Shown piece after piece: positions 14,704-53,994 of a stretch of DNA of 64,000 nucleotides. The position numbers were made by a program, and so were the translations under genes. A model generated the notes under the pieces. The model was not told where the DNA came from. It saw only the letters and a list, made by a program, of their open reading frames with translations, and did no database searches. The DNA is from Bdellovibrionales bacterium. GTDB taxonomy: Bacteria > Bdellovibrionota > Bdellovibrionia > Bdellovibrionales > UBA1609. The DNA is taken from assembly GCA_050250515.1 (NCBI GenBank), contig JBFWON010000003.1, positions 395 through 64,394 of the forward strand, written 5' to 3'. Position 1 is the first letter of the stretch. Each line of letters begins with the position of its first letter.

Positions 14704-17057
14704 TGCGTGACTATCTAAAAGATCGGTGGGCGGAAATCTCCCGCTCTCCGGCTCTGCAAATTTACGGCGCAGCCCTGACCGTGCTTCATCTCTTAACCAC
14801 CTTCTACTGGTGGAAAAAATGGCCCATTCGAATGGCAGATGCTGACGGAGCCATCTGCTTCCCCTATTTTTCAACCTGTCACCTCGTGCACGGAGGTACA
14901 GAGGCACTTTATCAAAATGTTCTCATCCTTTATGGTGTCTTTAGCTTACTGATCCTGGGTTTCTGGATAGCCAAGAAATGGCGAGAAGCTTGGCTCGGAC
15001 TATTACTAATCACTGTTTTGAAGTTCGCCCTGATGAGCTTGGACTATCGCTTTATGGGGAATTTTCACTACATCTCTTACTGGGTGATCTCCGCTTTTCT
15101 ATTTCTACCCCACGCACAAAAATTCATCCCGCTTCTTTTGTGTGCCATCTATTTTTCGTCCGGGCTCTTAAAAATCAATGCCGAGTGGTTGACCGGTGCG
15201 GCCATTTCCGTCGAGCTTCCACTGCCCCCCTTGGTTAACCAAATTCTATTGTTCTTAACTGTGGTCCTCCAGCTCGTCGGCGTTTGGGGAATTCTTTTTA
15301 GAAAACCCAGCTTTTTTTGGCCGGCCTATTTGGGCCTTATCGCTTTTCACGCTTTTTCTTTTTGGATTGTAGGCTTCTTTTTTCCTGCGGTGATGTTTGT
15401 GATTTTGCTCTTACCACTGCTCAATCGACGATACCCGCCGAGAGGCGGCCTGAAAATCAGCCACTCCATTTTTTTGGGCCTCTACGGGTTTTTTCAACTC
15501 ATTCCCCACCTGGCGAGTGGGGATTCGGCCCTCACGGGTGAGGGACGCACCTTCTCGCTAAATCTTTTTGACTCTCATACCAGTTGCCAGTCCTTTGCCC
15601 ACATTCGAACGAAAGGCCGGATAGCACAAGTTTCCTTTGAAACAGAGACTTTTGCCGCCCGAATCCATTGCGACCCACTTGTGTATTTTTGGACGATCCA
15701 ACGCATCTGCCGCGAAATGAAAGACGAGTCGGACTTTGTCAATGTCGACTGGTACATGCTTAGCCGAAGAGCCACGGACCACGCCTACTCCCGGATCGTG
15801 GAAGCGAGGGATTTTTGCACGAATGAACACCACTACTCGATTTGGCCCCTCAATTCTTTCGTTATAAAGCAGAGCCAAGAAGAGGTCGATCGCGCGGCCA
15901 TGAAGGAGCGCGTGCAAACACGGTCCGTGCCCAAAATAGCGAATTCCACCAAGCTCTCTCCCCCCGTCACTTCCAATTATCGAGGCGATGCTCAAAGAAG
16001 CGGGCGCCATCCGTGGAGTTCCCATTTTCAAAATCGTCCCCGCGAAATTTGGCGTCACCCTATCGGCAATGTAGGTATTCATGGGGCCAGCAAGGCCAGC
16101 CCGGCTGTGGACAACACCGGTGTCTACGTGGGCTCGGACTCGGGCTGGTTTTCAGCCTTTGATCTAAAAGGAAACTTGCGCTGGCAGTTTTTTGCCAGCG
16201 ACGCGGACCAGGGAATTCATGGGACGGCCTCTCTCGATGACGAAGCCGTTTATTTTGGCGCCTATAATGGGTTTATATACAAACTAGACAAAGAGGATGG
16301 ACACCTGATTTGGACAAACCCTCTTGGAAATTCCATCGGGGCCTCTCCCTTTCTCACGCAAGATGACCTTTACATCTCAGTTGAGACCTTTGACCCCAAC
16401 GGGTTTTTGGCTAAATTGAATCGGGCCACCGGCGAACTGCGCTGGGTGACTAAGGACTTAGGCAACCATTCGCACTCTTCGCCCGCCTTTTCGATCGATC
16501 AGGGTTCGGTGATTATCGGGGACAACACGTCCCGCTTACGCTCGTTTTCGACTCTCAACGGCGCCTTGCAATGGGAAGTCGAAGCCAAAGGCGAGATCAA
16601 ATCCACTCCCACAGTTGATCGCAACGATCTTTATTTCACCAGCTGGGACAAAGGGCTTTACAAGATAAAGGCCGACACCGGATTGGTGCTTTGGCGATTC
16701 GAAATGGACGAAAAATCGCAAAGTAGCCCCACCGTTTGGCCCGAACACAATTTGGTGGTGGCGGCCACCAATAGCGGCACTGTTTTTGGCGTGAACCTAA
16801 AAACCGGTCGACTGAAGTGGAAAATTCCAGGCTCAGGTCAGCCAAACAAATCCAGCGCGCTTTTATTGGCTGATGGTCGCGACGGCCTCTTTCTGATCGC
16901 CTGCGGAAAGAACCATCTATGCGCCATCAATTATCAAGGTGAAGTTCTTTATCAAATCCCGCTTAAGGGCAGCTTAACAGGCGTCCCGGTCGTCCATGGA
17001 AAGCGACTTTACCTTTCCGAAAACGATCCTGGCTTTTTGATGGCCTTTGAGTGGTAA
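14703..17057 (+). CDS. HTTM/vitamin-K-dependent gamma-carboxylase-like membrane domain fused to a PQQ-like (BamB-type) beta-propeller
   Basis: Multi-TM N-terminal half with GNFHY, IYFSSGLLKINAEWLTG and AFH motifs. C-terminal repeats of the S-P...Y-x-G...G-x-L-x-W type. Confidence 0.8.
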   Translation: MRDYLKDRWAEISRSPALQIYGAALTVLHLLTTFYWWKKWPIRMADADGAICFPYFSTCHLVHGGTEALYQNVLILYGVFSLLILGFWIAKKWREAWLGLLLITVLKFALMSLDYRFMGNFHYISYWVISAFLFLPHAQKFIPLLLCAIYFSSGLLKINAEWLTGAAISVELPLPPLVNQILLFLTVVLQLVGVWGILFRKPSFFWPAYLGLIAFHAFSFWIVGFFFPAVMFVILLLPLLNRRYPPRGGLKISHSIFLGLYGFFQLIPHLASGDSALTGEGRTFSLNLFDSHTSCQSFAHIRTKGRIAQVSFETETFAARIHCDPLVYFWTIQRICREMKDESDFVNVDWYMLSRRATDHAYSRIVEARDFCTNEHHYSIWPLNSFVIKQSQEEVDRAAMKERVQTRSVPKIANSTKLSPPVTSNYRGDAQRSGRHPWSSHFQNRPREIWRHPIGNVGIHGASKASPAVDNTGVYVGSDSGWFSAFDLKGNLRWQFFASDADQGIHGTASLDDEAVYFGAYNGFIYKLDKEDGHLIWTNPLGNSIGASPFLTQDDLYISVETFDPNGFLAKLNRATGELRWVTKDLGNHSHSSPAFSIDQGSVIIGDNTSRLRSFSTLNGALQWEVEAKGEIKSTPTVDRNDLYFTSWDKGLYKIKADTGLVLWRFEMDEKSQSSPTVWPEHNLVVAATNSGTVFGVNLKTGRLKWKIPGSGQPNKSSALLLADGRDGLFLIACGKNHLCAINYQGEVLYQIPLKGSLTGVPVVHGKRLYLSENDPGFLMAFEW

Positions 17058-17080: not shown

Positions 17081-18931
17081 CTACGGGCAGATAGAACGCC
17101 AGCGATCTTTAAACTCAGAACTCTGCAGAAACCCTTCTTCAATTGTTGAGGGAGACACACCCTTGGCTAGGTCGTTCAGCCAATAGTTCAGGCCCGCTTC
17201 ATCGGGATCTCTGGCGAGAAGACCCTGATAAATTCGAGTTAGATATATTTGGCGTGAAATACTCGAGTTCGTGCCGGCCGCAGTTTTAATGGAAGAAAAT
17301 TCCGCACTGTTCAGAAATGTCTTTGCGATCACGTAACAGCGGGCGCCGCCTGCATAGGCTTGACGCCAATAGGTCAGCCCGGCATCATCGGGCTCATGCA
17401 AAAACAAACCGCGATAGAGATTGAATAAAAACTCATCGACGGGACTCCCAATGACCACGGGATTGTTGACGATCGGGCTAGGGCGAAACTGCTCTGCAAG
17501 AGACTCAATTGATCCCTCGCCTGCAACCAGGAGCCGTAAAACTTCATACATGGACGAATCAAGATCTACAGCCCCGACTCCAACCAACGCCTGCCGAACG
17601 CGATCTTTCAAACGAGGCAGACGCGCAGGGTCTCGCAGGAGATCCACACCATCAAATTGTAGGAGGTAGTTGTACAGCATGTCCTTCGGCGAGCCATCGG
17701 TGCGGAACATTCCGTACGTGAAGGGATCGTTCGCCATATCCATCAGTTCCCAACTCATTCTAACTGGCATCAGCGCTTTCAGTCTCGGATCGGAAAAGAA
17801 CTTGGACAAAAACTGGGATTGAGCTTGACCAGAAACCACCGTATTGCCACACGCATTTTGCCTATGACACCCGGCTGACAAAGTCGTCACGCCAAATTCG
17901 CCTAGAATGATTTGATTCTTGTAAACCTCTGGCAAAAAGTCATTGATTCGGCTCGCAAAGTCCACCACATGATTAATGTAATCGTCGACAAAACCTGGGT
18001 CATCGATCCTACCCGTGTTGTTGTAGTAATAGTGAAGATTGGCCATCGCCAATCCGCCTGAACTATAGAAGCTTCGAAAGTATTCTAGATTCCCAGTCGC
18101 TCCCGATGGCATGGTGACGACAATCGGCAAACCCAGTCGATTCATCACGTGCTGAATACCTCCCGATAGAGCCGCGGCCCTCTGACCCAAGCGAGTGTCA
18201 CCGAGCCTGCAGGACGGTCCCGTCGGCAAGGAATCGAGTTCATTGAATGGATCAATCATCACATGTTGGCGAATCCAGTTGCGATCCATGGCAGGATCAT
18301 TCCACAGCGTATTAAGCATCAGGCCGTAAGACTCCGACATATTGTTCTTTAGGACCTCAAACACATCGTCGCCTTCTGGCAGAAAACAAACTCGGTCAGC
18401 CTCGGCGTTTCCTTTGTACCCGACGCGCCCTAGAGCCTCGAGTTCCGGATTCATCCACGTGGGCATCGGCGAGCCCATCGACAACATGATCGTGGCATTT
18501 TGCTTTTGATAAAGGCGCATAATGGTGAGCAATTCCTCTTTGTATCCGAGCACTCCTCTCTTTGGGAAGAATCGGCTCGTCTCAAAGATCTCGCGATAGT
18601 GAAGAAGCGAGGTACCCGTCGTCCCACTGAGAACATCCTTTATATCCTCCAAGGACATAGGCAACGGATGTCGGGGGCATGTGGCGCACACACCGTATTT
18701 TCCATTGAGGTAGCTGGATAGAAGCATGGTATTGGTGCCGGCGCCGGAGGCACCATCGGGCCGATATATTCCCGTAGGAATACTGCCATTAGCCGCTGTG
18801 ACTGAAGATAAGTTGAACGTGGAAGAACCTGTGGCCTGGAGACCTTTGACCGTCTTCGACGAAAAAGGAGAGCACGCCGCAACAATGAGAATCTGGAAAA
18901 AAATAATGCCTAGTTTTTTTGCCCCTGCCAC
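17081..18931 (-). CDS. Lipoprotein with clan GH-A-like glycoside hydrolase domain and two DUF4214-like repeats
   Basis: Lipobox IVAAC; FNEL (acid/base) and ILGEFG (nucleophile) motifs; LYRGLF.HEPDDAGLTYW and IYQGLLARDPDEAGLNYW repeats. Confidence 0.75.
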   Translation of the reverse strand: MAGAKKLGIIFFQILIVAACSPFSSKTVKGLQATGSSTFNLSSVTAANGSIPTGIYRPDGASGAGTNTMLLSSYLNGKYGVCATCPRHPLPMSLEDIKDVLSGTTGTSLLHYREIFETSRFFPKRGVLGYKEELLTIMRLYQKQNATIMLSMGSPMPTWMNPELEALGRVGYKGNAEADRVCFLPEGDDVFEVLKNNMSESYGLMLNTLWNDPAMDRNWIRQHVMIDPFNELDSLPTGPSCRLGDTRLGQRAAALSGGIQHVMNRLGLPIVVTMPSGATGNLEYFRSFYSSGGLAMANLHYYYNNTGRIDDPGFVDDYINHVVDFASRINDFLPEVYKNQIILGEFGVTTLSAGCHRQNACGNTVVSGQAQSQFLSKFFSDPRLKALMPVRMSWELMDMANDPFTYGMFRTDGSPKDMLYNYLLQFDGVDLLRDPARLPRLKDRVRQALVGVGAVDLDSSMYEVLRLLVAGEGSIESLAEQFRPSPIVNNPVVIGSPVDEFLFNLYRGLFLHEPDDAGLTYWRQAYAGGARCYVIAKTFLNSAEFSSIKTAAGTNSSISRQIYLTRIYQGLLARDPDEAGLNYWLNDLAKGVSPSTIEEGFLQSSEFKDRWRSICP

Positions 18932-21354: not shown

Positions 21355-21978
21355 TTATGTGGGGCGCGAGCATATCTTAAGAAAGGTCAATTCGAGTTGT
21401 ATCCAACTCTTTGATTCATCTATTGGTCGGCCCAGCATGAGATCCACTTGCGAATTGGCTCTGGCAGACTCGATTCTCAGCTTCAATGCCTTACAAATGG
21501 GATTCTGATCCCGTTTAGGAAAAGAGTCGTGCAATTCGAGCGACTCTACCTTTGCCATACCCTCGGCAAAGATTTCGTCCAAAACGCTCGACAGGCGATT
21601 CGCAATTATCTTCAACTCTTCCTTGAGCTCAATATCAAACGGAGAACAATCAATTTGGACCTGCACAGCGTCGAGTAAAAGTGTGCCTGTAAAAAGGATG
21701 GCGCGAGTGGCCTGCATGCAATCATCTCGACACTTGTCATACAAAAGCTTTTCTGGACCGGCTTGCACCTCAAGAGCCAAACGAGCCGCCCGATCCACCT
21801 CAACGTATTTGTCACTTGGCACTATGAACCGAGTCTTTGATGCTTTTAGAGTTTCCGCCGATTGAAGGACCGAGGCCACCCCATGCCGGGTGGCCTCAAC
21901 GAATGCTGGGTCTGTCCAACAGACCGGTGCGGCCGATAAGTTCAAGCCTACAAACAAAGCCCCTAGCAGAAGAATCAA
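21355..21978 (-). CDS. Secreted helical hypothetical protein
   Basis: Signal peptide; six Cys; 4-bp overlap with the upstream gene. Confidence 0.7.
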   Translation of the reverse strand: MILLLGALFVGLNLSAAPVCWTDPAFVEATRHGVASVLQSAETLKASKTRFIVPSDKYVEVDRAARLALEVQAGPEKLLYDKCRDDCMQATRAILFTGTLLLDAVQVQIDCSPFDIELKEELKIIANRLSSVLDEIFAEGMAKVESLELHDSFPKRDQNPICKALKLRIESARANSQVDLMLGRPIDESKSWIQLELTFLKICSRPT

Positions 21979-22760
21979 TGTAAAGCTCCGACCATGGCTT
22001 CGTGACTTTGCTTAAGTCGAATCATCGTTTCCAATAGACCTTGTTGAACTTGCACTTGGGCCGCCAAGTTAGCCGTCAGTTTCTGAGCAGCTCCCAGCAG
22101 CTCCCCAGCTAAGGCTTGATTCACATTTTCGTGAAATTTGGCCAACAACGACATATATCCTGACATCAGCTCGCCGGGTCTGCGCCAAAACCAATCGTTG
22201 GCCTTTTCTATACGATCCCGCAACTGTGCCGCGCTTTTCCGGTCTTCAGATGACAAGCCTGTTTGACTTTCGATTTGCTTCAATGCCGTAATCCAAAGAA
22301 CTCGATTGCTCTCCGAGTTTACAAAAAGGGGGCTTAAAATCTGTGCGACCTGCGCATGAGTCTTCAGCGCAAAAATCTGTTCCGCCATGCTTCGGACCGA
22401 CTTCTCAACTTCCTGAGCCGACGCCAAAATGGCTTGAGAGTAATTTGCCTGTTCCGTTTGCCTTTGGATCAGCTGAGTTAGCCGAGCGTCTTCCTGAGAT
22501 AAAACAGCGTTCACCTGAGCTCTCAATTTCTCAATGACCGCTTTCTTTTTAGAGAGCTTTTCAGATACTTCTTTGTGTTGACTCTGGGCACTCGGCAGTT
22601 GCGAGCGCCTTTGAGCAATTTGACCCTCGACCGCCGACTTTTGCTGTTGAGCCTCGTCGGCCTTCTTGCGAAAACCCCAGGGGTCCAACTTGTCTCGTAA
22701 ATCGTTGGCCTGAACTGCACTGACAAAGACCAAAACGGAAAATAAAATTAAACTTTTCAT
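21975..22760 (-). CDS. Secreted coiled-coil hypothetical protein
   Basis: Signal peptide (SAVQA); long Gln/Ala/Lys-rich heptad pattern. Confidence 0.75.
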   Translation of the reverse strand: MKSLILFSVLVFVSAVQANDLRDKLDPWGFRKKADEAQQQKSAVEGQIAQRRSQLPSAQSQHKEVSEKLSKKKAVIEKLRAQVNAVLSQEDARLTQLIQRQTEQANYSQAILASAQEVEKSVRSMAEQIFALKTHAQVAQILSPLFVNSESNRVLWITALKQIESQTGLSSEDRKSAAQLRDRIEKANDWFWRRPGELMSGYMSLLAKFHENVNQALAGELLGAAQKLTANLAAQVQVQQGLLETMIRLKQSHEAMVGALH

Positions 22761-22763
22761 TTT

Positions 22764-23654
22764 TTACTCCTGTGTCGAATCGATGGCACTGGCCATCTCG
22801 TCGTTTCGTTTTTTGCTGATGGACGCATCCGCATAGATCGAGCGGGCGGATTGGGCCGTTTGCTTTAAACCCTCTTCCACGTGATCCATCGCCTTTTGAT
22901 AGCTTTGCTTCACTTCATCAGATGCCATTTTCGAAAGCGCTAGGTAGGAGCTCTTCAATGTCTTGCCCATCGAATTGGCAATCTGTTGGAAGGCCGCCAC
23001 CGCTCGCGCAATGACTTCCGTTTGACCTTGAGATTTGGCCACTTCAACGAGGGCCTGTCCCGCCGACTTTTGCTCTCCACTTGAGATGCCCTGGAGCTCT
23101 ATTAAAAATGGCTTCAATTGATTCACAGCCGAAGCCGCCGATCTACTCACAATACCGGTTTCCTTACGGATGATCTTCAGTCTGGCCTGCGCGACCACAA
23201 TCATTTTTTCAAGACCTTCAAATTCACGTCGGTAAGTTTCGAAATGGTGGTTGAAGGTACGCGTGCTCTCCAACTGGCGAGCTTTGTACGACTTGAACTG
23301 CACTTTTTCCGCCTCGGTCGCTTTGATGACATCATCGATCTGTTTATTTATGGCGTTGAGTTCTCCCTGAACTTTTTGAAGTTCCGCCACTTTAGCATTG
23401 TACTCTTCCTCTTGCTTGCGTCTTTCATTTTCACCCGTGATGGCATTCTTGCCTCTTTCAAGGGCTCCGCAAATGTCCCCTCCGCAATTGGGTGTCGGAA
23501 TATTGGTGCCTTGGGCCTGTGGACCCACCTTAATCCCGCCGCTACCAATTGAAACCACACCGCCAATACCAATACTCCAGTCGCCACCCCACGCTTGGGT
23601 GGCAACGGCCACAAGCGAAATCAAAATCGCTCGGGATACTATTTTATTTGTCAT
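22764..23654 (-). CDS. Secreted coiled-coil hypothetical protein with Gly-rich N-terminal segment
   Basis: GGAGG RBS; signal peptide; WSIGIGGVVSIGSGGIKVG and CGGDIC followed by a long coiled coil. Confidence 0.78.
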   Translation of the reverse strand: MTNKIVSRAILISLVAVATQAWGGDWSIGIGGVVSIGSGGIKVGPQAQGTNIPTPNCGGDICGALERGKNAITGENERRKQEEEYNAKVAELQKVQGELNAINKQIDDVIKATEAEKVQFKSYKARQLESTRTFNHHFETYRREFEGLEKMIVVAQARLKIIRKETGIVSRSAASAVNQLKPFLIELQGISSGEQKSAGQALVEVAKSQGQTEVIARAVAAFQQIANSMGKTLKSSYLALSKMASDEVKQSYQKAMDHVEEGLKQTAQSARSIYADASISKKRNDEMASAIDSTQE

Positions 23655-23689
23655 GTTCTTCCTCCATTCGATTGACCACGTCTCCCCTA

Positions 23690-23705
23690 ATCAAGATCCG
23701 GGCCA
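23690..23705 (-). promoter_or_regulatory. Possible sigma54-like promoter for the leftward operon
   Basis: Minus strand TGGCCCGGATCTTGAT: GG-N10-GA, so the -12 element is non-canonical. Confidence 0.3.
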
Positions 23706-23712
23706 TCGGATT

Positions 23713-23728
23713 TGGCCGCCGATTTGCT
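23713..23728 (+). promoter_or_regulatory. Putative sigma54 promoter for the rightward operon
   Basis: TGGCCGCCGATTTGCT gives GG-N10-GC with TTGC. Confidence 0.5.
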
Positions 23729-23796
23729 CAAAGGGATTACCCGAAAGGAGAGTCTGGAGCAGCTAAGTAGGCGAATACAGACTAAAGGACCACGAA

Positions 23797-25068
23797 ATGA
23801 AGAAAAAATCGAACGCCCCAATCAAGAATTTCCGCGCTTTCGTGCAACGCTTCGGACACAATGTCCGAGAATCCGGACGTCGACTCAGCCTCATTCTCCT
23901 TCTGATAGGGGCGCTTCCATCATGGGCCGATAACGACTCCCTGATCGATATGGCCTTTGACGAGAATCTCTTTATATCAGTCCACGGGCGAATTGAACTC
24001 GACCGCGCCACGGCCCGAATTGAGGGCATCTGTAAGATGTTGGTTTCACCTTCGACCGTGGATCAAAGCGCCTGTCAATGGCCCGCAAAGGCCCGCCAGG
24101 TCCAAGCCGCCTATGAACAGTTGAATTCAAAGGTCAGCGAAAGCTCAATGGCTAGGACGGGTCGCTTGGCCGCGCGAAACCTGTCTCGGGCAGAACTTTT
24201 GCTCAACGGATGGGGAAGCCGAACCTCTGATCTAACAGATACCCTTCAAGCCGTAGCATTTGCACGAAGTCTGACGGATTCCACTCAGTCGTTGATGTCA
24301 GCACTTGGGTCACCAGATTGGATCCTGGCCAATGCTTTAAACAACGAATCGGCAGATCTCCTTAAGATCCATCAAATCGCCCCCCAGTTCACTGCTTGGG
24401 TCCAGAGCGAGGAACCTCTCGGCTTTTTTTTGCGTTGGTCGAATTTTTTGCCGTCGCAGGCCCAATGGGTCGAGGGCATTTTCACCTGCCTGCGAGCGGA
24501 AGATGACATAGCCCACGCTTTGAATCATCCCGAAACCGTCCGAGTTCAACGTCGATTGATGCTGAAGGAGATTGAGGTCACCCGGTCCGGCTGGGGCCTA
24601 CCAGCCCCTGGCCTGTTGGTGGACTTTGGTTCGAGTGGTACCTCAACTGCTGAAGTTCTCGCACCCATCCTAGATCAGTTGTTAACTCTTGATTTAAGCC
24701 CCATGGCGCGAGAGCTGAATGAATGTCGCTCACTCGCGCAAGCATTGGCTTCTGTGGGGATCAATGAAGAAGTCATCAATTCCACTCGCCTCCAGTGTGA
24801 AAAAGCCCGCCAGACCCAGAATTCCCTTCACTTAGAAGATCTGCCCCCCGGGACCGCCACTCGCCAATATGCCCTAGTCTTACATGAAACCCGCACAGAG
24901 CGCGGCTATCAGCCGAGCGTTTTTGAGAGGCGCGCCGTCAGTCTTTTTAGGAGCCTCGAGAGCGCACCAAAATCCGCGACCCCGTGCGACCCGAAAATTC
25001 AAGCTAAGCTTAGTCCATTGATTCAACAGCTGCGTCGCCTCATCAACAACCAGGAACTCGGAGGATAA
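23797..25068 (+). CDS. Secreted hypothetical protein
   Basis: 423-aa ORF. Signal-like RRLSLILLLIGALPSWA suggests the true start may be further downstream. Confidence 0.7.
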   Translation: MKKKSNAPIKNFRAFVQRFGHNVRESGRRLSLILLLIGALPSWADNDSLIDMAFDENLFISVHGRIELDRATARIEGICKMLVSPSTVDQSACQWPAKARQVQAAYEQLNSKVSESSMARTGRLAARNLSRAELLLNGWGSRTSDLTDTLQAVAFARSLTDSTQSLMSALGSPDWILANALNNESADLLKIHQIAPQFTAWVQSEEPLGFFLRWSNFLPSQAQWVEGIFTCLRAEDDIAHALNHPETVRVQRRLMLKEIEVTRSGWGLPAPGLLVDFGSSGTSTAEVLAPILDQLLTLDLSPMARELNECRSLAQALASVGINEEVINSTRLQCEKARQTQNSLHLEDLPPGTATRQYALVLHETRTERGYQPSVFERRAVSLFRSLESAPKSATPCDPKIQAKLSPLIQQLRRLINNQELGG

Positions 25069-25069
25069 A

Positions 25070-25900
25070 ATGTATTTGAAATTCACACCCATTTTAATTT
25101 TCAGCCTTCTTCCCCTTTTCGTGGGGGCGTGTGGAAAGAACGACGCCCCTGAAAATTCCGTTCCCCCTCAGTACGACTGGGGACACTTTGTCTTTAATCT
25201 TGAAAATCCAGCGTCCCAACTGAGTGCTCATCTCACTCGAATTGTCGGGGCCAAAGGTCGAACTTTAAATGTGGAACTCAAAATTACGGCCGCAGGCCAG
25301 TGCACCGAGTACAACGAGATTATGCACAGTCAAACTTCAAAATTGAGGGGGGACTTCAACACGGAGTGGTCGTTTGTGACCCCGAAAGGTGAAGGTCGCC
25401 CCTGCCAGGCGGAACCAGGCGGCCTCACCATCTCGTCAGAGGAATGGACGTCGATCCAACAGGGCCGGCACCGTGACCTGCAAGCGCGAGGCTCCTATAT
25501 TTTGATCGAAGAAGAAGTAGCACAAGTCCCGGAACTTCCAGTTTCAGCTAACTTGGGGACACGTACCCTCCTCTTTCAGAGCAAAGCGCGAATCGATCAG
25601 CAAGCCCTTCCTGTGGCGGCGATTGTTGACTTAGAAAAGCGAAGGCTGGTGGGATTGGCGATCGACTCAACCTGGCTCGAAGACACTCGATCAGATGAAT
25701 CCTTCCCAACCGAAATGGGCAAATTCTCAAAACTCCTCCCCGTGCACGTCGACAAGGTGGACCAAGAATTTAAAAGTCAAAGATGCCGGCTTCAGGCTGG
25801 CTATGTACGACATCTCGAGCAATCTGAATCAGGGCTACCAACCCAACCCCTCAAAGAATTTATCAAATCTATCAAAACTCCCACAAAGGAATGTCCATGA
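25070..25900 (+). CDS. Hypothetical lipoprotein
   Basis: GGAGG RBS; lipobox FVGAC. Confidence 0.78.
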   Translation: MYLKFTPILIFSLLPLFVGACGKNDAPENSVPPQYDWGHFVFNLENPASQLSAHLTRIVGAKGRTLNVELKITAAGQCTEYNEIMHSQTSKLRGDFNTEWSFVTPKGEGRPCQAEPGGLTISSEEWTSIQQGRHRDLQARGSYILIEEEVAQVPELPVSANLGTRTLLFQSKARIDQQALPVAAIVDLEKRRLVGLAIDSTWLEDTRSDESFPTEMGKFSKLLPVHVDKVDQEFKSQRCRLQAGYVRHLEQSESGLPTQPLKEFIKSIKTPTKECP

Positions 25901-27774
25901 AGACCTGGATCTCTTTTTTAATCGTACCTCTTGGGCTCAGCGCTTGGGGTGACTCTGGCGATGTTTCTACTAAAGTAGAGACCGGCGGAGGCGTCACCTA
26001 TTTCGAATCCGAAGATCATCCCATGAAAATGGACTGGGACAATTGGACCTTTTGTTGGGGCGCCAATGCCAAATCCAAAACCCACAGTGGTGATTCTGCC
26101 GTCAGTGGGTCATCTGAAAACTCTGGCACGATCGATTCTTATGCCAACGTGGAGGGGCCCCTTAGTCGAATGCTGGTCAATCGTCTGCAATGGGAATCCA
26201 AGTTCAATAAGGAAGATATGACTTTTAGAATCAACATTCATCGAAAGATCGGCGCCAATCAAGAGCGCCAGGAGCGATCGACTTGCACCACGCATGATTG
26301 GAAGTACAAGGTCAACAAGGCCCAATCTAAGGTGGAAACCTCTGTCAAACTCCATGTACCCGACAATGTTTGGGTGATGCGAATTAAGACTTTGATCAAT
26401 CACTCCGGTTATCGACCCGTTATTGACAGCTCCCGGCCCATGCCGATTCGAGAAAGCTCGCAAGTACAAGAGACCAAAGGTTTTGAGCTTGACGGATATC
26501 AGTACTTCTTCACTCGACCAGGCGAAGACTTCCAGATCGCTCTGAATATTGATGAGAAGCAGGTCAAAGACATCGATTTAGTCACCTCGATTGAAGTTAC
26601 TTTCGTTGGTCACAATCGCTGCGAACAAACCTTTCAAGAAGTCTTCGGTAATGAAAAACTAGCCACATCCGATAAGGTGGCCAGCGCAGCTAGAGAAGCC
26701 TTTGAAAAAATGGAGGCCAGTCTGGATCGAAAAGATCAGGCTACCATTGGAGATTTGCACCGCACCACTTTGCTCATTGGTTGTCTAATGAACCGCAATG
26801 TGGCCGACGGGATTCTTTACCATAATGACACGACCCAAGTGCAAAAACTAATGTCCGAAGTGCAAAGCTTTCGTCAACGGGTCACCGACCGCACTCTCCA
26901 AGATCCTTCTTATAAACGTGCAGGAGACGCCCTAAAACTTCTGACCCAAATGTCGCTCGCTAGCCTCACGTCAAATGTTCTTGAGCACGTTCAACCCTTC
27001 TGTGAGAAAATTCCCATTTTCAATCGAAGTTCCGGTCAAAAGATTGGATACAAACGCGGATTTGTCCAGATTGGCGAGAATTTAAAGCAGGCTCGAAATC
27101 TACTGGGCGGAGCGGGATTTACCCGATATTTTTCCGACCTCTTTGCCAAGTATCAATTCGCCAGCCTAAGCGGCCGAACCCACGCCCAACTTATGTCCGA
27201 CCCCGTGACTCGACAAAACATTGTTGAGTTGTCCAATCTCTTCGAAGCCAACAATAAGGTCTTGGTCGCCCACAAGATCTCATCGCTGTTGGCCGAAATG
27301 CCCGGACTCAAACCGAATGTGGTGGTTGTCGGGCTGGCCGAGTCCGCACTCAAAATGGAAGCCACCGTCGGTCGACTGCATTCGGCCTTCACGCGTGAGC
27401 TGGATAAACTTGCCGCGCGCTCCGCCACTCGTCCCGATCTTAAAAATTTCGACACGGACATTCGGGCCTTGGACAATTCCACGAAATCCATGCAGGCGAA
27501 CCTACAAGCTCTATTGGCTCTTGTTGACAAAGCCGAGGGTGGCCCCATCGCCTCAGATTTTGCCAATGCCACCCAAGGAATTCTCACGATCGGGGGAAAT
27601 TTCTGGCTCGCACAGGTCTATGGCGGTTATTTCGCAGATTTTTTGGCCTCAATCGACCCCGATTTTCGCTCCGCCCGGGAAAAAAAATCCGTCGAGGCCA
27701 ATGGCACTTACAAACAACTCGCTCTTGAAGAGGTGAAGTCATGTCTTACCGCATACTCGTCCCTAAACAATTGA
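25891..27774 (+). CDS. Secreted hypothetical protein (beta-rich N-half, helical C-half)
   Basis: 627-aa ORF with signal peptide (LSAWG), overlapping both neighbours. Confidence 0.78.
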   Translation: MSMKTWISFLIVPLGLSAWGDSGDVSTKVETGGGVTYFESEDHPMKMDWDNWTFCWGANAKSKTHSGDSAVSGSSENSGTIDSYANVEGPLSRMLVNRLQWESKFNKEDMTFRINIHRKIGANQERQERSTCTTHDWKYKVNKAQSKVETSVKLHVPDNVWVMRIKTLINHSGYRPVIDSSRPMPIRESSQVQETKGFELDGYQYFFTRPGEDFQIALNIDEKQVKDIDLVTSIEVTFVGHNRCEQTFQEVFGNEKLATSDKVASAAREAFEKMEASLDRKDQATIGDLHRTTLLIGCLMNRNVADGILYHNDTTQVQKLMSEVQSFRQRVTDRTLQDPSYKRAGDALKLLTQMSLASLTSNVLEHVQPFCEKIPIFNRSSGQKIGYKRGFVQIGENLKQARNLLGGAGFTRYFSDLFAKYQFASLSGRTHAQLMSDPVTRQNIVELSNLFEANNKVLVAHKISSLLAEMPGLKPNVVVVGLAESALKMEATVGRLHSAFTRELDKLAARSATRPDLKNFDTDIRALDNSTKSMQANLQALLALVDKAEGGPIASDFANATQGILTIGGNFWLAQVYGGYFADFLASIDPDFRSAREKKSVEANGTYKQLALEEVKSCLTAYSSLNN

Positions 27775-29426
27775 TTGCGGCTGTAGTTTCCATCTGTCTC
27801 GCGACTCAGTCAGCTTGGGTGATTCCGGCTCACGCCGATCAGGCCGATGACTTTATCGCGAAGACCCATAAGTTAGCCGATGGCATTGCCACCAGTACGG
27901 TCAATATGATGCTTTTGAGCGCGCTTCAGCAAGCGGTGTATATGCAAAATGCAGATCCGTCCGTGGCTTTAAAGGCCATGCGTGAGCAAACCATTGCGAT
28001 GAAAAGTTTGGGCGCCCGCCTAAACAAAACTTACGCGATAGCTTTGGACGGCGCCGGTCAACTGAGCGGGCAACGGCTTACACAGCTCTACAACGATTAT
28101 GTTTCGATCATGTCGCAAATCACGAATCAGAGTCTTCGTCTCGATGGAATTCGCCGAGATGCACATGCCTTTCAGGCCGTGATTTTCAATTTGGCCCAAG
28201 GGTTAATGCAGAGTCTTGAGGATCGCTGTCGCGAAGGATACTACGTCAATCCTTATAGCGAAATTCGACCCGCCCTGCAGGCCATCATGCCGGCCTACGA
28301 AGTGCGACTGTCATTTGAGTTTGGCGGCGGACAAAGTCCACACATGGACCCCGCCAAGAGTGGCGTTTCCATCGCGAAGACCGACGAAGAAAAAGCCCTT
28401 TGGGCGGTCTTTTACGCCGGGAGTGTCATTCTCTCAACCTATGCTTTGACTGGCACATGGGTGTTGACGACGCAGGCGTTTTCAAGCCTTGCGCTCGGGA
28501 CACAAATGGCGGCACTCGGCATGGCATTTGGCGTGGGACTGGCGGTGGCGGCCATTATTGTGGCAGTGCAAATTTCGCAAGCGCGCGACGCTGCCAAAAA
28601 GGCCGTTGATCAACAGCGACGAATGTTTGAACAAAGAGCTGATCACAATACGGTCAACAAACTCTTCACTGAGAAGTGCGAGGCCGCGAAGAAAGAGTTC
28701 ACCGATTTGCGCGGAGCACTTGAGGCCATGGCGCGCGGCGAAACCTCCATCATACAGCAGTTAGAATCCAACCGAACTGCCATGAAGGCCAAGATCCAAA
28801 CTTTCGTTGCGGATCTGAATGCCTATGTAGAGACGCGAAAGCGAATCTTAGGTGCTGATTTTGAAAGCAAGGCAAAAGAAGAACAAACCAAGCTTTTGAA
28901 CGAGCTCGACAAGTCTCCTGAGGCGAAAAAATTCATGACCGCTAGCCAGGGCCTCAATCCCAAGGATATGGCCCAAATGATCATGTTCATAATTAAAGAT
29001 CTTTACCATGGCGGAGTGACCTACTCGAAAAAACTGGAAGACGCCTTTCAAAACACAGTGTCGATCATCAATGGAAAGCGCTCGGAAGAGCGAGCCACTC
29101 TTCTTCGAATCATGGCTGGTCAGAAGAACATGGAGGAAATCCAGCTCAAATCATCTGACGATCTGCAAATCGAAATTCGCCATTCTCAGGAATTGGCTGA
29201 AATTTATGCAGATTTGGATGCAGTGATTTTGGATTTGGCGGAGGCTGTCTTTTTGCCCGAAACCGCCCTTCGCCCAAAAGTGGAATCCATCAATGAGCGC
29301 GTCGCCAAGCTGCAAGAGCGCATTCAAGCCGCGGCCGAGCGACATCCCAAAAGCGAACTTCTGACTTTTCTCAAGGTCAAATTTCAGAACGTTCAATCCA
29401 ATATCGCGATCGGGAGGACATTATGA
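27741..29426 (+). CDS. Secreted helical protein with central hydrophobic hairpin (pore-former/translocator-like architecture)
   Basis: Signal peptide (PAHA); coiled coils flanking a ~60-aa uncharged segment WAVFYAGSVIL...GVGLAVAAIIVAVQ. Confidence 0.7.
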   Translation: MSYRILVPKQLIAAVVSICLATQSAWVIPAHADQADDFIAKTHKLADGIATSTVNMMLLSALQQAVYMQNADPSVALKAMREQTIAMKSLGARLNKTYAIALDGAGQLSGQRLTQLYNDYVSIMSQITNQSLRLDGIRRDAHAFQAVIFNLAQGLMQSLEDRCREGYYVNPYSEIRPALQAIMPAYEVRLSFEFGGGQSPHMDPAKSGVSIAKTDEEKALWAVFYAGSVILSTYALTGTWVLTTQAFSSLALGTQMAALGMAFGVGLAVAAIIVAVQISQARDAAKKAVDQQRRMFEQRADHNTVNKLFTEKCEAAKKEFTDLRGALEAMARGETSIIQQLESNRTAMKAKIQTFVADLNAYVETRKRILGADFESKAKEEQTKLLNELDKSPEAKKFMTASQGLNPKDMAQMIMFIIKDLYHGGVTYSKKLEDAFQNTVSIINGKRSEERATLLRIMAGQKNMEEIQLKSSDDLQIEIRHSQELAEIYADLDAVILDLAEAVFLPETALRPKVESINERVAKLQERIQAAAERHPKSELLTFLKVKFQNVQSNIAIGRTL

Positions 29427-31576
29427 GCCGCTGGTTGTCTCTAGTATTGGCACTCACCCTGGCATTACCAGTCGGAGCGGAGCGAATCTTAACAAACACC
29501 GACATTCACCTCCGCTACATGGACACACGCCAAACGCCCTCGGGAGTGCAAGTTCACAATTTTTTTGCCACGGATATTCGCACCAATCGCGATTATGTGG
29601 TGATCGTAGCTTCGCGCGGATCGAATTGGGTTTCGATGGTGCCGCGGGAAATTCAATACAATCCCGATTTGGGTGGACGAGCGGTCGTAACGGGTCTGGC
29701 CTCTGACGACGTTCGAGATCGAATTCGCACCAAGCTAGCGCAAGAAAAGGACGGCTTTCGTCAGTGGAAACAGGACAAGTATGCAAAACCGCCAGAAATG
29801 GCCGACAATTCCCGACCGAAAAAGGACGAGAAAATTCCAAAACCTGACCTGCGCCCGGGCGACCGCCCTGGCTCCGGTCGAAGCGATGAAATCGATTTCG
29901 GCAAAATCGGTCCAGGCCAAAACGATGGGCAAACCGACTGGCAGCGCTGGAAGGCTCGCCAAACTCCTTTTGTTGTAGGTCAAACTCTAGATTCCATGGG
30001 GTGGGACGCACAGGCCCAGTACAAAGCCGAAATGGCCCAGAATGACATGATTCGCGAGCACCAGCGCATGGTCGACGCCGACCTTGCGGCTCGACTGGAG
30101 CGGCAGGGATTTGTCAATTCACAGATCAAAGCCAACATGATTGCCTCGTTACACGAGTACTTGGAAAGGCCGGCGCCAGGAGGTGTTCCGGTCGAAGACG
30201 GAATCTTGACTCGAATTGACCTCACCGAAGAAGGGCGCAGTTCGATGCGCCAGGATCTGCAAAAATTCAAGGAGGAGCACCAATGGAATCGTTTGGCCGA
30301 CCGGATTACAGGGCTTTCCAATCCATGGTCTGGTAGCCCGGCAGATCCAGCCCTACGCGGATATGCGGATCACCAAGGGATTATGAATGGCCCTGTTATT
30401 CGACCTGATTCCATACAGATCAGTGGCCGTGAATCTATGGTGCATCGAATTCGCCAAGTCGCCAACCGACTGCAAGCATTTGCCTTGCAGGACGACAGCT
30501 GGAAGTCGGGTACCTACATGGCGCGAATTGTGACGAATGCCGCATTGGCCATTCGAAGCTCCGCTTTGCTCGAGAGCATGGGAGTTAAGGATGAAGCCGA
30601 AAAACTCCTAGGCTTCGCCGAGGCCGCAACACAGTTTTTACAAGGACGCGATGAGGGCATTTTGATCGGAGTGGTACAAGGTGTGGCTGGTTTAGCCGAA
30701 CTCGTGGTGACTGGTTATGAGGCCGTCGAGTTCACAGCTAAAAATCCGCAACAAGTCGTCAAGGGACTGAAGTCCGCCGCTGAATTTTTTGGCGATCCGG
30801 AACTGGTTCGAGAAGCGACTGAGCAAATTTATACGTCGCTGACTCAGCAGGCTCCAAAAGTATTGAGCGCGGCATGGAAACGTGTGGTTCACCATGCCCT
30901 TCATGACTCCGCCCGAGATCGAGGACGAATTGCCGGCCGCGTGATAGCAGAAGTGGGCATGGCGGTGCTGGGAGCAGAGGTGGCGCAAGTCGCCAAAGGG
31001 GCTCTGAGTGTTGGCAAAGTCGCTCGCCTTGAAGTCGCCGCCGATGAATTGGCCACCGCAATACTAAAAAAGGCCGACAAGGTCGCCTATCGAAGTGAAC
31101 AACTGGCGGCAATTGGTAAAAAGACCGGGCCTTACGTGCGCGACTTGCCGGACATTCGCGAACTTGCAGCTACAATGAAAGACCCAAAGGCAGCCGAAGC
31201 GCTCCGTAGTTTTGCCAACGCATTTGAAGCGCACATTTTCAAAGGAGACCTCAAACCAGGTGATATTCTTTTTCAATCCCAGCGACTCAATCAAACTCAG
31301 CCGGGATCTTGGTTCTCTGTGATTCGTCCAACCGACTCGGTCGAAGCTGAAGAACTTTTGAACATCTTTAAGCACGGCAATTACGCTGAGAAGATGACAA
31401 CCTATGTGGTGAAGGAGCCCATCAGCATTTATGCGGGAAAAGTGGCCGGCGGCAACGGTCATCAGATAATGTTCCCGACCCATCCTGCGTTTAATCGTCC
31501 CCTTAGACTTCTAGATGTGTTAGAGGAAGTGGAAACCATAAAGCTCCCCTTCAACGGGGGACCGGTTGGTCAGTGA
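29423..31576 (+). CDS. Secreted polymorphic-toxin-like protein with C-terminal TNT/ART-like domain
   Basis: Signal peptide; pre-toxin-like hydrophobic helices (GILIGVVQGVAGLAELV, GRVIAEVGMAVLGAEV); C-terminal LKPGDILFQSQR..GSWFS..YVVKEP.SIYAGKVAGGNGHQI pattern. Confidence 0.6.
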   Translation: MSRWLSLVLALTLALPVGAERILTNTDIHLRYMDTRQTPSGVQVHNFFATDIRTNRDYVVIVASRGSNWVSMVPREIQYNPDLGGRAVVTGLASDDVRDRIRTKLAQEKDGFRQWKQDKYAKPPEMADNSRPKKDEKIPKPDLRPGDRPGSGRSDEIDFGKIGPGQNDGQTDWQRWKARQTPFVVGQTLDSMGWDAQAQYKAEMAQNDMIREHQRMVDADLAARLERQGFVNSQIKANMIASLHEYLERPAPGGVPVEDGILTRIDLTEEGRSSMRQDLQKFKEEHQWNRLADRITGLSNPWSGSPADPALRGYADHQGIMNGPVIRPDSIQISGRESMVHRIRQVANRLQAFALQDDSWKSGTYMARIVTNAALAIRSSALLESMGVKDEAEKLLGFAEAATQFLQGRDEGILIGVVQGVAGLAELVVTGYEAVEFTAKNPQQVVKGLKSAAEFFGDPELVREATEQIYTSLTQQAPKVLSAAWKRVVHHALHDSARDRGRIAGRVIAEVGMAVLGAEVAQVAKGALSVGKVARLEVAADELATAILKKADKVAYRSEQLAAIGKKTGPYVRDLPDIRELAATMKDPKAAEALRSFANAFEAHIFKGDLKPGDILFQSQRLNQTQPGSWFSVIRPTDSVEAEELLNIFKHGNYAEKMTTYVVKEPISIYAGKVAGGNGHQIMFPTHPAFNRPLRLLDVLEEVETIKLPFNGGPVGQ

Positions 31577-31962
31577 GGTCAAGTATGGGCTACCTTTTCT
31601 ATGTCAAGTATTCACCACCTTTCAATACGTCCATGGGAGCGCCCTTGATTTCCGAAGTTGAAATCGAGGGTATGGACTGGCAACCCGAGGTCTTAAAGAA
31701 ACATTATTTTCACTATGATGTCTCCGCGACTTCGGGAGAATGGGTGGCTCTCGCCCGTTACGATGTCGGAATTCAAAGGGCCAATTTTCAAATTTTCTTG
31801 TTTGATGCCAAAAATAAGAAAATCTACACTTCCAAAGTATTTGAAGCCTTCCCTGAGCGGCTAAAAATCCTCGATGCAAAGAAAGTGAGGGTTGAATATG
31901 TAACCGGGATGGAAAATCAAGAAACCGTGATTTCAGACTGGGAAGAATTGCCCAACACGTAG
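31573..31962 (+). CDS. Putative immunity protein
   Basis: 129 aa, no signal peptide, 4-bp overlap with the stop of the toxin-like gene. Confidence 0.5.
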   Translation: MRSSMGYLFYVKYSPPFNTSMGAPLISEVEIEGMDWQPEVLKKHYFHYDVSATSGEWVALARYDVGIQRANFQIFLFDAKNKKIYTSKVFEAFPERLKILDAKKVRVEYVTGMENQETVISDWEELPNT

Positions 31963-33176: not shown

Positions 33177-34421
33177 TTGGGAGCTTCAAAAATGGAATAT
33201 CTAAGAAGCAACATTTGGGAGATTAAAAAATCCGGTGCGCTCAAATCTTTGGGTGCGCTGCTGGCCCTTTTTCATCTTCTGCAGTTTTACCTTTGGTATG
33301 ACGATGGGCATCTCCCGCTGAAATTTGCTCAACAGGACCTGCCGATGTGCTGGTCCCTGATGGAAAATTGTGAGTGGATCAAGTCTATCCCCTTTGGCGT
33401 CTTGCAAACCGCTTACTATGCCTATGCGTCTTTGATGGTTTTGGCGGCCTTGATATGGCTGGTCTCGGACTTTGTGGCCTTTGGCTACTACATGATGCTG
33501 ATTGGGCTGGGTTGCGGAATGGCGCTCTACTTTCAGGATTTGCGCCTTAGTTCTAACGAAGGCTATGCGATTTTCCTACTCTCTTTCGCTTTTTTACTGG
33601 TGCCATCCAAGCATAGAGTTATGCGCTGGCTGATTGTGTCTTTTTTTGCAGCCCGAGGATTGTCCCAGGCTTCGCCCGATTGGCTCAGCGGAACTTGGTA
33701 CAGAGAGCATATGAACATTCCGATCAAATTGGCTGAGTGGCTCGCCGCCTTAAGCCTTTTGGTGCAAATGATCGGAAGCGCCACCTTGCTCTTTCGTGAT
33801 GGCCGCTATTTTTGGAGCGGCTGGATTTTGCTGTTCTTGTTTCAGTGCTCGCAACTTTATATGGGCGAGTTGCTGGGCGCCTCCACCGGCCTGGGGGTTC
33901 TACTCTACGCCATGTTTGATGAATTCGAACTGCGCAAACAAGAGCGTGAGTATATCTACCAATCCTTTATTCGCCCTGAGCCTTCAGGTGTGATTGGAGT
34001 TTGCCTGCTCATTCTTTTTTGGACGGCCCAGCTGGTGCCCTATCTGCCAGTCCAAAGAGGTTCCACGGTAAAGCGAATTTTGGATGTGTGGGCCCTTCAC
34101 CCGGAGGCCGCGCACGAAGACTGTCGACAGCGTACGTTTGCCCAGTACAAACATCGAACCGAGCAAATTCAGGTCGAACCGCAAATTGCTCGACAGCCGG
34201 CCATGCTGTGCAACGTTTATATGCGCTTTTTGGACTTAAAAGCCCTGTGCAATCAAATGCGCGCCGATCCTGAGTTCATCACTTTGGCCAGTGTTCTGGA
34301 TATTCGCAGTTATCGGGATCGTAAGAGCTACCGAGCTTTCGAAGCCCGCGACTTTTGTTCCGATGGTCTGACGTTCAAAAAGATCAATGAGGTGAAATGG
34401 ACTACGACAAAAGACATGTAA
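33177..34421 (+). CDS. HTTM-like membrane protein, degenerate paralog of the N-terminal half of 14703..17057
   Basis: Shares EI..S.AL...GA.L...HLL, CW/CF...C, D.R...N, W.(S/T)G and EARDFC motifs with the 14703 protein. Likely start is ATG 33192. Confidence 0.75.
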   Translation: MGASKMEYLRSNIWEIKKSGALKSLGALLALFHLLQFYLWYDDGHLPLKFAQQDLPMCWSLMENCEWIKSIPFGVLQTAYYAYASLMVLAALIWLVSDFVAFGYYMMLIGLGCGMALYFQDLRLSSNEGYAIFLLSFAFLLVPSKHRVMRWLIVSFFAARGLSQASPDWLSGTWYREHMNIPIKLAEWLAALSLLVQMIGSATLLFRDGRYFWSGWILLFLFQCSQLYMGELLGASTGLGVLLYAMFDEFELRKQEREYIYQSFIRPEPSGVIGVCLLILFWTAQLVPYLPVQRGSTVKRILDVWALHPEAAHEDCRQRTFAQYKHRTEQIQVEPQIARQPAMLCNVYMRFLDLKALCNQMRADPEFITLASVLDIRSYRDRKSYRAFEARDFCSDGLTFKKINEVKWTTTKDM

Positions 34422-35794
34422 AGTGGTACTGGCTGTTTCTCTTCTTGGTCTATTGCGGTGCCGTGATTTACCTTCTGTTCGCGGCCAACCCATATTTGTA
34501 CTCTCATCATGAGTTGCGGGCCGCCATGAATCACTCCGATTCCATGGAACTTTTGACGATCCCGGCGGAATCGGGACAGCGCCAAAAGCTGACCGATCCC
34601 ACATTCTTTTCGCGCTTCAATTTTAGTCATTCGGCTGTGGACCCGGTCGGGAGCCCACGCAATAAGAACTATACAGAATTTAAGAAGTACCCGGTTCAGT
34701 TGAATGAAGAGAACTTCACGGTCGAAAAGATCGCGCAAGATCCCTCGGGCTTCTACCTGGCGAGCACCAGCCCCTGGATCATCAGTGTGGGTCTCACGGG
34801 CGAGGTGCGGTGGAAGTTCCGTATGCGCGACTTAGGTGAAAACCAAGCCGCTTGGGCGCCCCTTCTTGATCAGGAGACCGCCTATATTTTTCATCCTGGC
34901 GGCGAAGTGTACGGGGTGAATAAAGAAACGGGCACACTGGTTTGGACCACCCGTTTGGATGATGAAATCATCAGTCAGCCGTTTATGTGGAAGGATGAGC
35001 TTATCATTCCCGTTGAGCGTGAAAAAGGACCCATTTGGTTACGATTGCACCGCGCGGACGGTCGGGTCGCGCCGAAAAAAATTAAGCTGGATATCGCCTC
35101 ACCCTTTGAAGTCAGCCTGGGGCCCGGCGGAAAGTCACTGTTGTTCACGACCGATAACAAACTCTATTCCGTTGATCCCAATACTTGGGAAATCGTTTGG
35201 AGCCTTTCGGTCACCGACCCGATCAAAGGACCGGCGGTCGTCGCAGAATCGCAGATTTTTTTGGCCACCCTTGGCGCCAAGATCGTTAAAGTGGATGGTG
35301 GTAAAAAGGCCAAAGTCGATTGGGAAGTCGACCTGGAAAAAGCGCCGGCGAGTCCGCCCTCTTTTTTACCGGTGGTCAATCGCCTGTCGGTGCAATTGGT
35401 TGGTGGAACGCTGGTGGCCATTGACGTGAAATTGGGCAAAGTCTTATGGAGCTACAACAACGAGAACCACAATCCCCTGACCGACACTTGGTCCGTTCGA
35501 CTGAGCGCCAAGCATATTGAAGAGTTTAAGATGGATTGGCTTCATAAAGGGTGGACCATTTGGAGCGCCTGTGGGTCGCGAAAAATCTGCATTTACACCC
35601 CCAATAAAGGCCAACTGGTGGAGCGAATCGTAATGAGCGCCTCCCCCATGACCCTACCCCTCCCGGTCGAAAAGACCTGGATCAGCTTTGGCGAGATAAA
35701 GCCCGGCCAATACGAGATTTCCCACCTTCTGGAACAGTCGGAAATCAAGAAGATCTTGGCTGAGTCCGCCACGGAAACGCAAAAGCCTCAGTAA
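34397..35794 (+). CDS. PQQ-like (BamB-type) beta-propeller protein with N-terminal TM anchor
   Basis: TGEVRW, TGTLVW and GKVLW repeats; overlaps the upstream HTTM-like gene. Confidence 0.8.
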   Translation: MDYDKRHVKWYWLFLFLVYCGAVIYLLFAANPYLYSHHELRAAMNHSDSMELLTIPAESGQRQKLTDPTFFSRFNFSHSAVDPVGSPRNKNYTEFKKYPVQLNEENFTVEKIAQDPSGFYLASTSPWIISVGLTGEVRWKFRMRDLGENQAAWAPLLDQETAYIFHPGGEVYGVNKETGTLVWTTRLDDEIISQPFMWKDELIIPVEREKGPIWLRLHRADGRVAPKKIKLDIASPFEVSLGPGGKSLLFTTDNKLYSVDPNTWEIVWSLSVTDPIKGPAVVAESQIFLATLGAKIVKVDGGKKAKVDWEVDLEKAPASPPSFLPVVNRLSVQLVGGTLVAIDVKLGKVLWSYNNENHNPLTDTWSVRLSAKHIEEFKMDWLHKGWTIWSACGSRKICIYTPNKGQLVERIVMSASPMTLPLPVEKTWISFGEIKPGQYEISHLLEQSEIKKILAESATETQKPQ

Positions 35795-37802: not shown

Positions 37803-38030
37803 ATTCCCAGCCCAAAGTCCCTATTCATAGTCTAGGACGTGCCGAAATGGCAAAGTCCCAAAAACATGAGGACCTCACAGCCCTCGCATTCTCATTTCAT
37901 CCGTCTAATCATGATAAGATTTTATCGACCTTAGTCCGCGATAACTAGTAATCCTAGAGCTTGAACGATTTCGGTATAGCCAAGACTTGGCCTCCATACC
38001 GCTATACCGTTTGCCGAAAAACAGACTTGA

Positions 38031-38864: not shown

Positions 38865-39178
38865 AACAATCAGTATAGCGATTTTCATTTGGCGATCACG
38901 CCTATACTAGAGCATCCAAATTTCATTCAAAAATTCCATTTCAAAAGTTCCCTGTTATCCTGAATTTGCTAGTGAACCAGACTGAAAGCGAAAGCAGAGG
39001 TGTTGCAAACTAGGATTTGGATTTGAACTGATCGTCAGGGGTGCGTGAGGCCGTACCGTCTTCTCCCCATAAGGTATCGGTCCACCACTCTGGCGACAAC
39101 TAAAAAATTTAACTTAAACCAATTTGGTACTGGCGATGCCAAAGCTGGATTTGTCCGTCCAAAAATGAAAGGAATTTT

Positions 39179-40942: not shown

Positions 40943-40957
40943 CAGCGGGAGAAAAAT

Positions 40958-53983: not shown

Positions 53984-53994
53984 CCCCAAGCTTT

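Follow-up and report, generated by a model that had tools for sequence, protein, structure and literature searches.

A conserved operon in Bdellovibrionales joins four Sec-exported proteins to a polymorphic toxin and its immunity gene and is a candidate toxin delivery module

When a polymorphic toxin gene is preceded by several genes for exported proteins of no known family, do these proteins deliver the toxin into other cells? The question is raised by a locus of a bacterium of the Bdellovibrionales, an order of predators. It occupies positions 21355 to 31962 of a stretch of 64,000 nucleotides (contig JBFWON010000003.1, positions 395 to 64,394 of the forward strand, assembly GCA_050250515.1), which as a whole is called the window here. 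An initial annotation, made from the sequence alone, described the locus as a divergent cluster of nine genes and as a candidate multi-component toxin delivery system. What stands of that proposal is a conserved, Sec-exported multi-gene module tied to a toxin-immunity pair; the nine-gene unit and the ClyA-type folds expected of its products did not gain such support. The six rightward genes, labelled A (g4), B (g5), C (g6), D (g7), E (g8) and I (g9), are a conserved operon, in which A to D likely constitute a dedicated module that would carry the polymorphic toxin E into the cytoplasm of rival bacteria.

All nine open reading frames, three leftward and six rightward, were found where they had been placed. 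They are tightly packed, with distances of -34 to +3 base pairs (bp) between neighbours, apart from the 142-bp gap from which the two arms diverge. This gap does contain the back-to-back sigma54-like motifs reported for it, one per strand and with two mismatches each: the -24/-12 site upstream of the six-gene operon (23713..23728, + strand) keeps the GG and GC elements, and the weaker site facing g3-g2-g1 (23690..23705, - strand) has GA in place of the -12 GC. A pair of this kind on both strands occurs in 0.2% of random 142-bp segments of the genome. Of 20 other loci, 9 also have sigma54-like sites ahead of A, whereas such sites occur in 6.3% of random segments of that size; these 20 loci are kin and thus not an independent sample. 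Signal-like N-termini, judged from hydropathy and inspection by eye, are present in eight of the nine products, as had been claimed; in g4 the signal is located at residues ~29-45, that of g6 falls under the 19-residue hydropathy threshold, and g9 has none. The G+C content of the locus (~50%) is similar to that of its flanks. None of the nine proteins reached a model cut-off in Pfam or NCBIfam, and no paralogues of them were detected by tblastn in their own genome.

The conservation of the operon became apparent with profiles. The sequence of D alone gave matches in 3 of 151 genomes of the order, its own included, whereas a profile of six D sequences matched 24 of 384, in 6 of 13 families, with no match in the 17 other genomes of the window's genus. 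Among 1.84 billion representatives, the same profile matched 118 clusters formed at 50% identity, and six records of a D subfamily are titled Bdellovibrionales or Bdellovibrionaceae. In a sample of the phylum 12 of 401 genomes matched D; the single strong match outside the order has a C-like gene upstream of its D, and two of the three weak matches were inspected and lack the operon. The order A-B-C-D was found in 17 of the 24 other D loci (in one of them C is split, and in another C was missed by the gene caller yet is an open frame); of the other seven, six run into contig ends and L041 is fragmented. At the 21 loci with a further gene on the same strand after D, this gene is E in 20 (one of them cut before its marker domain) and encodes Rhs/YD proteins in L041. 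One single-contig genome, G079, holds the full operon. Profiles built without the window matched its C (E-value 1e-17), its D (1e-26) and residues 265-611 of its E (4e-11). A profile of the E marker domain, built from 20 of 21 E cores with the divergent E of L053 left out, matched 28 of the 384 genomes; five additional genomes were among its strong matches, and the four-gene run lies upstream in four of these five. In total, about 30 of the 384 order genomes (~8%) have the system or its toxin. Scans of metagenome contigs with two alignments found no relatives. Two loci deserve separate mention. Genome G167 holds two complete A-E operons, L043 and L050, with different tips, and the locus closest to that of the window, L041 (3976-15352, genome G347), comprises a gene for a 552-residue coiled-coil protein, split A-like and C genes, D, and then Rhs/YD-repeat proteins instead of E.

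The last large gene had been proposed to encode a polymorphic toxin, and its conserved core, exchanged tips and adjacent small genes that track the tips bear this out. E (29423..31576, + strand) has 717 residues, including a signal peptide. Its N-terminal part is variable and is followed by a helical marker domain (residues 262-412; 30206..30655, + strand), which is conserved and may serve in loading or delivery; between this domain and the tip, which again varies, lies a pre-toxin region rich in Gly and Ala. As would be expected if the C-terminus varied between loci, nine tip classes were found among 23 complete E proteins: a RES-like class of ten members, a second class of four, two classes of two (one of them that of the window) and five singletons. 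Four E proteins reached the Pfam RES cut-off and two fell just below it. In a D tree, which is of the quick kind and has long branches, clades with strong support contain more than one tip class, with 12 changes against a minimum of 9, a number as low in 12 of 200 shuffles. E-type tips are also carried by PT-TG toxins, and small downstream genes that go with the same tip class are similar to one another (for instance, E-value 9e-24 between L045 and L053). In the window this position is taken by I (g9; 31573..31962, + strand), a protein of 129 residues that was described as small and cytoplasmic and indeed follows E without a signal; it is likely the immunity protein. The similarity of g9 to the gene after the tip homologue of genome G001 is weak (E-value 0.06-0.1), and BLAST detected none. 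Three features that can be read from the sequences, namely variable tips, known or shared toxin tips and a co-varying small gene, identify E and I as a polymorphic toxin system.

The tip of the window's E (residues 596-695; 31208..31507, + strand) is 52% identical to the C-terminus of a G001 protein whose N-terminus differs and which includes a PT-TG domain. The layout of the tip resembles that of the TNT/Tne2 NAD(P)+ glycohydrolases. According to PMC6398120, Gln822 closes the glycine loop of these enzymes (811-822), and the substrate is stacked by an aromatic residue; similarly, in the window tip one aromatic residue lies upstream and another follows a strand, and a Gly-rich loop has Q681 at its end. 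This Gln after the loop is the single invariant column among eight aligned tips. In contrast to TNT/Tne2, the tip gave no PF14021 match, it has neither a DRXG nor a QRXL motif as such, and a search of the protein database with the tip region returned the query alone. As no profile match stands behind the likeness, we infer the NADase activity, and the window tip is likely an NAD(P)+ glycohydrolase. Beside the PT-TG toxin of G001 that shares this tip (L009, 5900-12958), about eight exported proteins are encoded in an operon, with two apparent paralogue pairs (488/469 and 354/333 residues).

Of the proteins encoded upstream of E, D is the most informative. D (27741..29426, + strand) has 561 residues and is a helical bundle and a candidate membrane-inserting translocator on account of its profile matches, its model and its conserved Cys pair. 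The hydrophobic hairpin of ~60 residues attributed to this product corresponds to an uncharged run of 63 residues (219-281; 28395..28583, + strand) between Cys163 and Cys313. Among 110 aligned homologues both Cys are kept in 109 and a hydrophobic peak lies between them in 101; the median uncharged run of the homologues is 47 residues. The AlphaFold model is a confident helical bundle (predicted local distance difference test, pLDDT, 82.7; predicted template modelling score 0.72), with low confidence (pLDDT<50) at residues 214-274, which cover most of the hydrophobic segment. D thus has the feature of a hydrophobic membrane-inserting hairpin, its insertion being predicted.

C (25891..27774, + strand; 627 residues) combines a beta domain of long strands (residues 23-239) with a helical domain in which Cys371 and Cys618 are conserved; its model (pLDDT 74.1) shows a four-helix bundle within the helical domain. 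Generic four-helix bundles fill the best 50 rows of its VIA search (best Z 15.2, root-mean-square deviation (rmsd) 2.7, 141 residues aligned); among them ClyA stands at rank 46 (Z 9.0, rmsd 6.6, 133 aligned) and IpaD at rank 50 (Z 8.8, rmsd 2.8, 113 aligned). The Atlas search gave no usable match for C, and no paralogy between C and D was detectable. B (25070..25900, + strand; 276 residues) carries a lipobox, in line with the lipoprotein mentioned for the cluster, and is likely a membrane anchor; the lipobox pattern occurs in 20 of 23 genes at the B position, with an invariant Cys, and the window's B gave a weak profile match over 22 columns (E-value 2e-4). A (23797..25068, + strand) is an exported, Cys-containing protein of 423 residues at the matching position of the other loci; its profile match is weak and colinear (136 columns, P=0.008, probability 4.9%), and the C..C.P and P motifs of the family are kept. 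Sequence searches matched A to D to none of the families of Pfam or NCBIfam.

A gene order that stays the same while the payload changes, together with the sole conserved long segment of the module predicted to insert into membranes, that of D, favours a role of A to D in delivery. By analogy, the operon would work like a translocon-assisted toxin. Transcription of the operon would be driven by sigma54, and Sec would carry A, C, D and E over the inner membrane, where disulfides may stabilise them, while B would sit anchored in a membrane. The marker domain of E could then be used for loading, and the beta domain of C might bind the target or help with passage of the outer membrane. The hairpin of D would enter the target membrane and the tip would be passed through; RES or TNT-like tips would destroy NAD+, other tips would hit other cytoplasmic targets, and siblings would be protected by the cytoplasmic I protein.

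Several observations weigh against this proposal. The model gives no route from the periplasm outward for proteins exported by Sec. The profiles built without the window found no match to its A or B, and because of this strong divergence both were assigned mainly by position. The marker profile missed the E of L053 (genome G188). Moreover, the E marker occurs without A-D in genome G219, and a weaker form of it in PT-TG toxins preceded by other coiled-coil genes, so that A-D are not the sole route of such toxins. As for the activity of the tip, a strand position occupied by Arg in related tips holds Gln in that of the window, and the window's tip has no sequence match in Pfam or the PDB. A bolder form of the proposal, which we put forward tentatively and hold to be somewhat less probable than its negation, is that A-B-C-D represent a new class of translocation machine: a contact weapon fed by Sec and anchored by a lipoprotein, in which C would dock on or span an outer membrane and the disulfide-clamped hairpin of D would thread interchangeable enzyme toxins, even Rhs cargo, into another cell.

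Does the module extend to the leftward genes? These encode g3 (22764..23654, - strand), an exported coiled-coil protein of 296 residues, g2 (21975..22760, - strand), another of 261 residues, and g1 (21355..21978, - strand), an exported six-Cys protein of 207 residues. All nine genes would form one system if g1-g3 were co-regulated coiled-coil chaperones or adaptors of E, an idea compatible with delivery by A-D. The divergent promoter region with its paired sigma54-like sites is common to both arms, the A-like gene of L041 is immediately preceded by a gene for a 552-residue coiled-coil protein, and at least 13 of 20 loci inspected have a pair of genes for exported coiled-coil proteins before a PT-TG toxin. 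In addition, g3 and a neighbour protein of G219 gave z=4.7, the lone pairing to stand above the shuffle tests. However, no homologues of the leftward genes were detected: among 30 system-positive genomes neither g1 (best E-value 0.019) nor g2 (best E-value 0.026) had a convincing match, g3 had none in 108 family genomes, the other A-E loci are flanked upstream by unrelated genes, and the shuffle and profile tests against coiled-coil proteins failed. We therefore regard the nine-gene system as rather unlikely.

Two assignments of the leftward genes were rejected. The architecture of g2 and g3 is like that of the coiled-coil families upstream of PT-TG toxins, but profile and shuffle tests failed; the upstream genes of L041, seen by eye as g3+g2 and g1+g4 fusions, failed shuffle tests as well. 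The coiled-coil loci form a second type of locus that is the commoner one, with exported coiled-coil proteins encoded before a PT-TG toxin whose region is found in 30 of 109 family genomes; possibly they represent a second undescribed delivery route. At L155, L156, L158, L161, L162, L164, L165, L168, L166, L167, L169, L171 and L173, genes for one to three exported coiled-coil proteins, sometimes a lipoprotein, stand directly before a PT-TG toxin and an immunity gene. The locus of G219 (L116, 741-4311) encodes a toxin with the E marker and a RES-class tip and two immunity-like genes, with two coiled-coil genes upstream, after which the contig ends. The genome of the window itself holds a second polymorphic toxin locus (L121, 4489-10857 of G000:C52), composed of two genes for exported coiled-coil or helical proteins and one for a PT-TG toxin of 616 residues whose tip clusters with that of the E of L047, followed by six paralogous immunity-like genes (~125-135 residues) and one unrelated small gene.

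A different division of labour would have A-D export E over the producer's own outer membrane, with C as a channel and B pilotin-like, and E using its Gly/Ala-rich pre-toxin helices to enter targets unaided. An exit through the outer membrane is needed, since every part has a Sec signal. E has a hydrophobic stretch of its own (residues 411-432), strands of the N-terminal domain of C reach 20 residues, and Foldseek, queried with the whole C model, returned many secretins at E-values of ~1e-3. These secretin rows have TM-scores of ~0.1 and rmsd values of 23-30 A, which means no fold match for C and at most a lead, and no secretins appear among the best 50 VIA rows for C, which lie mostly on its helical part. 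Since this explanation also leaves the conserved long hydrophobic segment of D unaccounted for, we consider it improbable in comparison with delivery into the target cell by A-D.

Still less probable in our judgement is the use of the module in predation, with the toxin reaching the cytoplasm of the prey either from the contact site or from within its periplasm. The carriers are Bdellovibrionales, that is, predators, and from the prey periplasm only the inner membrane remains to be crossed, which would suit a helical hairpin. Yet the system is found in ~8% of the genomes of the order and in none of the 17 congeners, a patchiness that points to competition between strains or species rather than to core predation. 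Tip exchange with cognate immunity is the signature of rival against rival, according to PMC3482391. Destruction of prey NAD+ would presumably also waste food.

Whether the helical proteins are themselves pore-forming toxins was asked of the D model, as ClyA/Hbl/YaxAB-like folds had been expected. Foldseek gave no match at an E-value of 0.001 or lower, with SmhA and NheA listed at a TM-score of 0.11, and the best 50 VIA rows hold no ClyA, Hbl or YaxA entry, the best being a generic three-helix bundle (Z 11.3, rmsd 1.9, 91 aligned); the comparison used models of more than 400 residues, and the D hairpin is of low confidence. In the Atlas feature search Hbl L1 came first with a score of 0.78, and eight of the ten best family matches share a family or clan; according to the search tool, a score <0.9 is a lead only. 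Bacillus_HBL and related families gave no sequence match at any listed E-value, and sequence searches of the PDB were empty. With a confident D model and no ClyA/Hbl structure match, the ClyA-like idea is left with a weak lead. A multi-component alpha-pore-forming toxin of the ClyA/Hbl type, composed of A, C and D and killing by pores, with E as a passenger or neighbour, is very improbable: beyond the Atlas lead and the helical nature of D with its hydrophobic segment, such a toxin would have to accommodate a D of 510-660 residues with a Sec signal, a C with a large beta domain, and an E after D in 20 of 21 loci that a self-sufficient pore would not need.

How, then, does the delivery of E by A-D compare with known systems? 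The ClyA family (Hbl, Nhe, SmhABC, AhlABC, MakABE, YaxAB) likewise encodes several exported helical proteins per operon, one of them with a long hydrophobic segment; unlike it, the present operon shows no sequence or significant fold match and also encodes a lipoprotein, a protein with a beta domain, and an enzyme toxin that varies and has an immunity partner. Among the type III translocators SctE/SctA (IpaB/YopB, IpaD), SctE is resembled by D, which at ~560 residues has the SctE-like succession of coiled coil, hydrophobic hairpin and coiled coil; here, in contrast, there are Sec signals, disulfide-type Cys pairs and no adjacent injectisome genes. The absence of VgrG, RHS, CdiB and WXG100 hallmarks, remarked on earlier, was upheld: the VgrG model TIGR03361 was not found in the 96%-complete genome (the E. 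coli control was positive), and neither RHS, CdiB, WXG100 nor LXG reached the cut-off in the window in Pfam or NCBIfam, an ESAT6_3 match on g3 (E-value 0.34) being noise. With a signal-like N-terminus on E and no VgrG, the locus does not qualify as a type VI effector locus, nor, by the features searched for, as an Rhs, CDI or LXG system.

The polymorphic toxin systems as set out by Zhang et al. 2012 (PMC3482391) share with E/I a conserved N-terminal trafficking part, variable C-terminal toxin domains that include RES, an adjacent cognate immunity gene, and tips common to PT-TG and other carriers; they differ in that the trafficking module is here made of four Sec-exported proteins outside known families. 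The umbrella toxin particles of Streptomyces (PMC11062931) are similar in being secreted multi-protein assemblies encoded with a polymorphic toxin and an immunity gene and containing long coiled coils. UmbC, which binds UmbB and UmbA, carries ALF repeats and a Tat signal, whereas the operon described here has Sec-like signals, a Gram-negative host, a lipoprotein and a separate hairpin protein. None of the nine proteins gave an ALF or trypsin-like Pfam match, so that by these features the operon is no umbrella system, and the Foldseek row of Umb1 against D has an E-value of 0.056 and a TM-score of 0.11.

We found no description of the operon in the open-access literature, although supplements, notably that of PMC3482391, could list these toxins; the word Bdellovibrio does not occur in 300,000 of the 357,715 characters of that article. 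The likely delivery module of this polymorphic toxin operon appears to be undescribed.

Elsewhere in the window, a multi-pass membrane domain fused to a domain resembling a beta-propeller of the pyrroloquinoline quinone (PQQ) type is encoded at 14703-17057 (784 residues), and the same two kinds of domain recur as split genes at 33177-35794 (414 and 465 residues), both labels being given by eye. At 17081-18931 lies a gene for an exported protein of 616 residues, which we take to have a glycoside-hydrolase-like core and DUF4214-like C-terminal repeats. Two stretches, 37000-41000 and 52000-55000, have a lower G+C content (0.44-0.47 against ~0.51) and are possibly acquired DNA.

Polymorphic toxins are classed by their delivery, and this operon pairs them with four proteins that match no known family or fold. 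As a candidate for a new route of delivery among Gram-negative bacteria it is compact and testable, and the set of loci yields several uncharacterised toxin tips with paired immunity genes. Should A-D indeed be a translocation machine of a new class, Bdellovibrionales would have in it their first toxin system of predator against rival, and the smaller coiled-coil modules, possibly including g1-g3, would be sister routes. The operon thereby offers a first handle on how Bdellovibrio-like predators may fight one another or their competitors.

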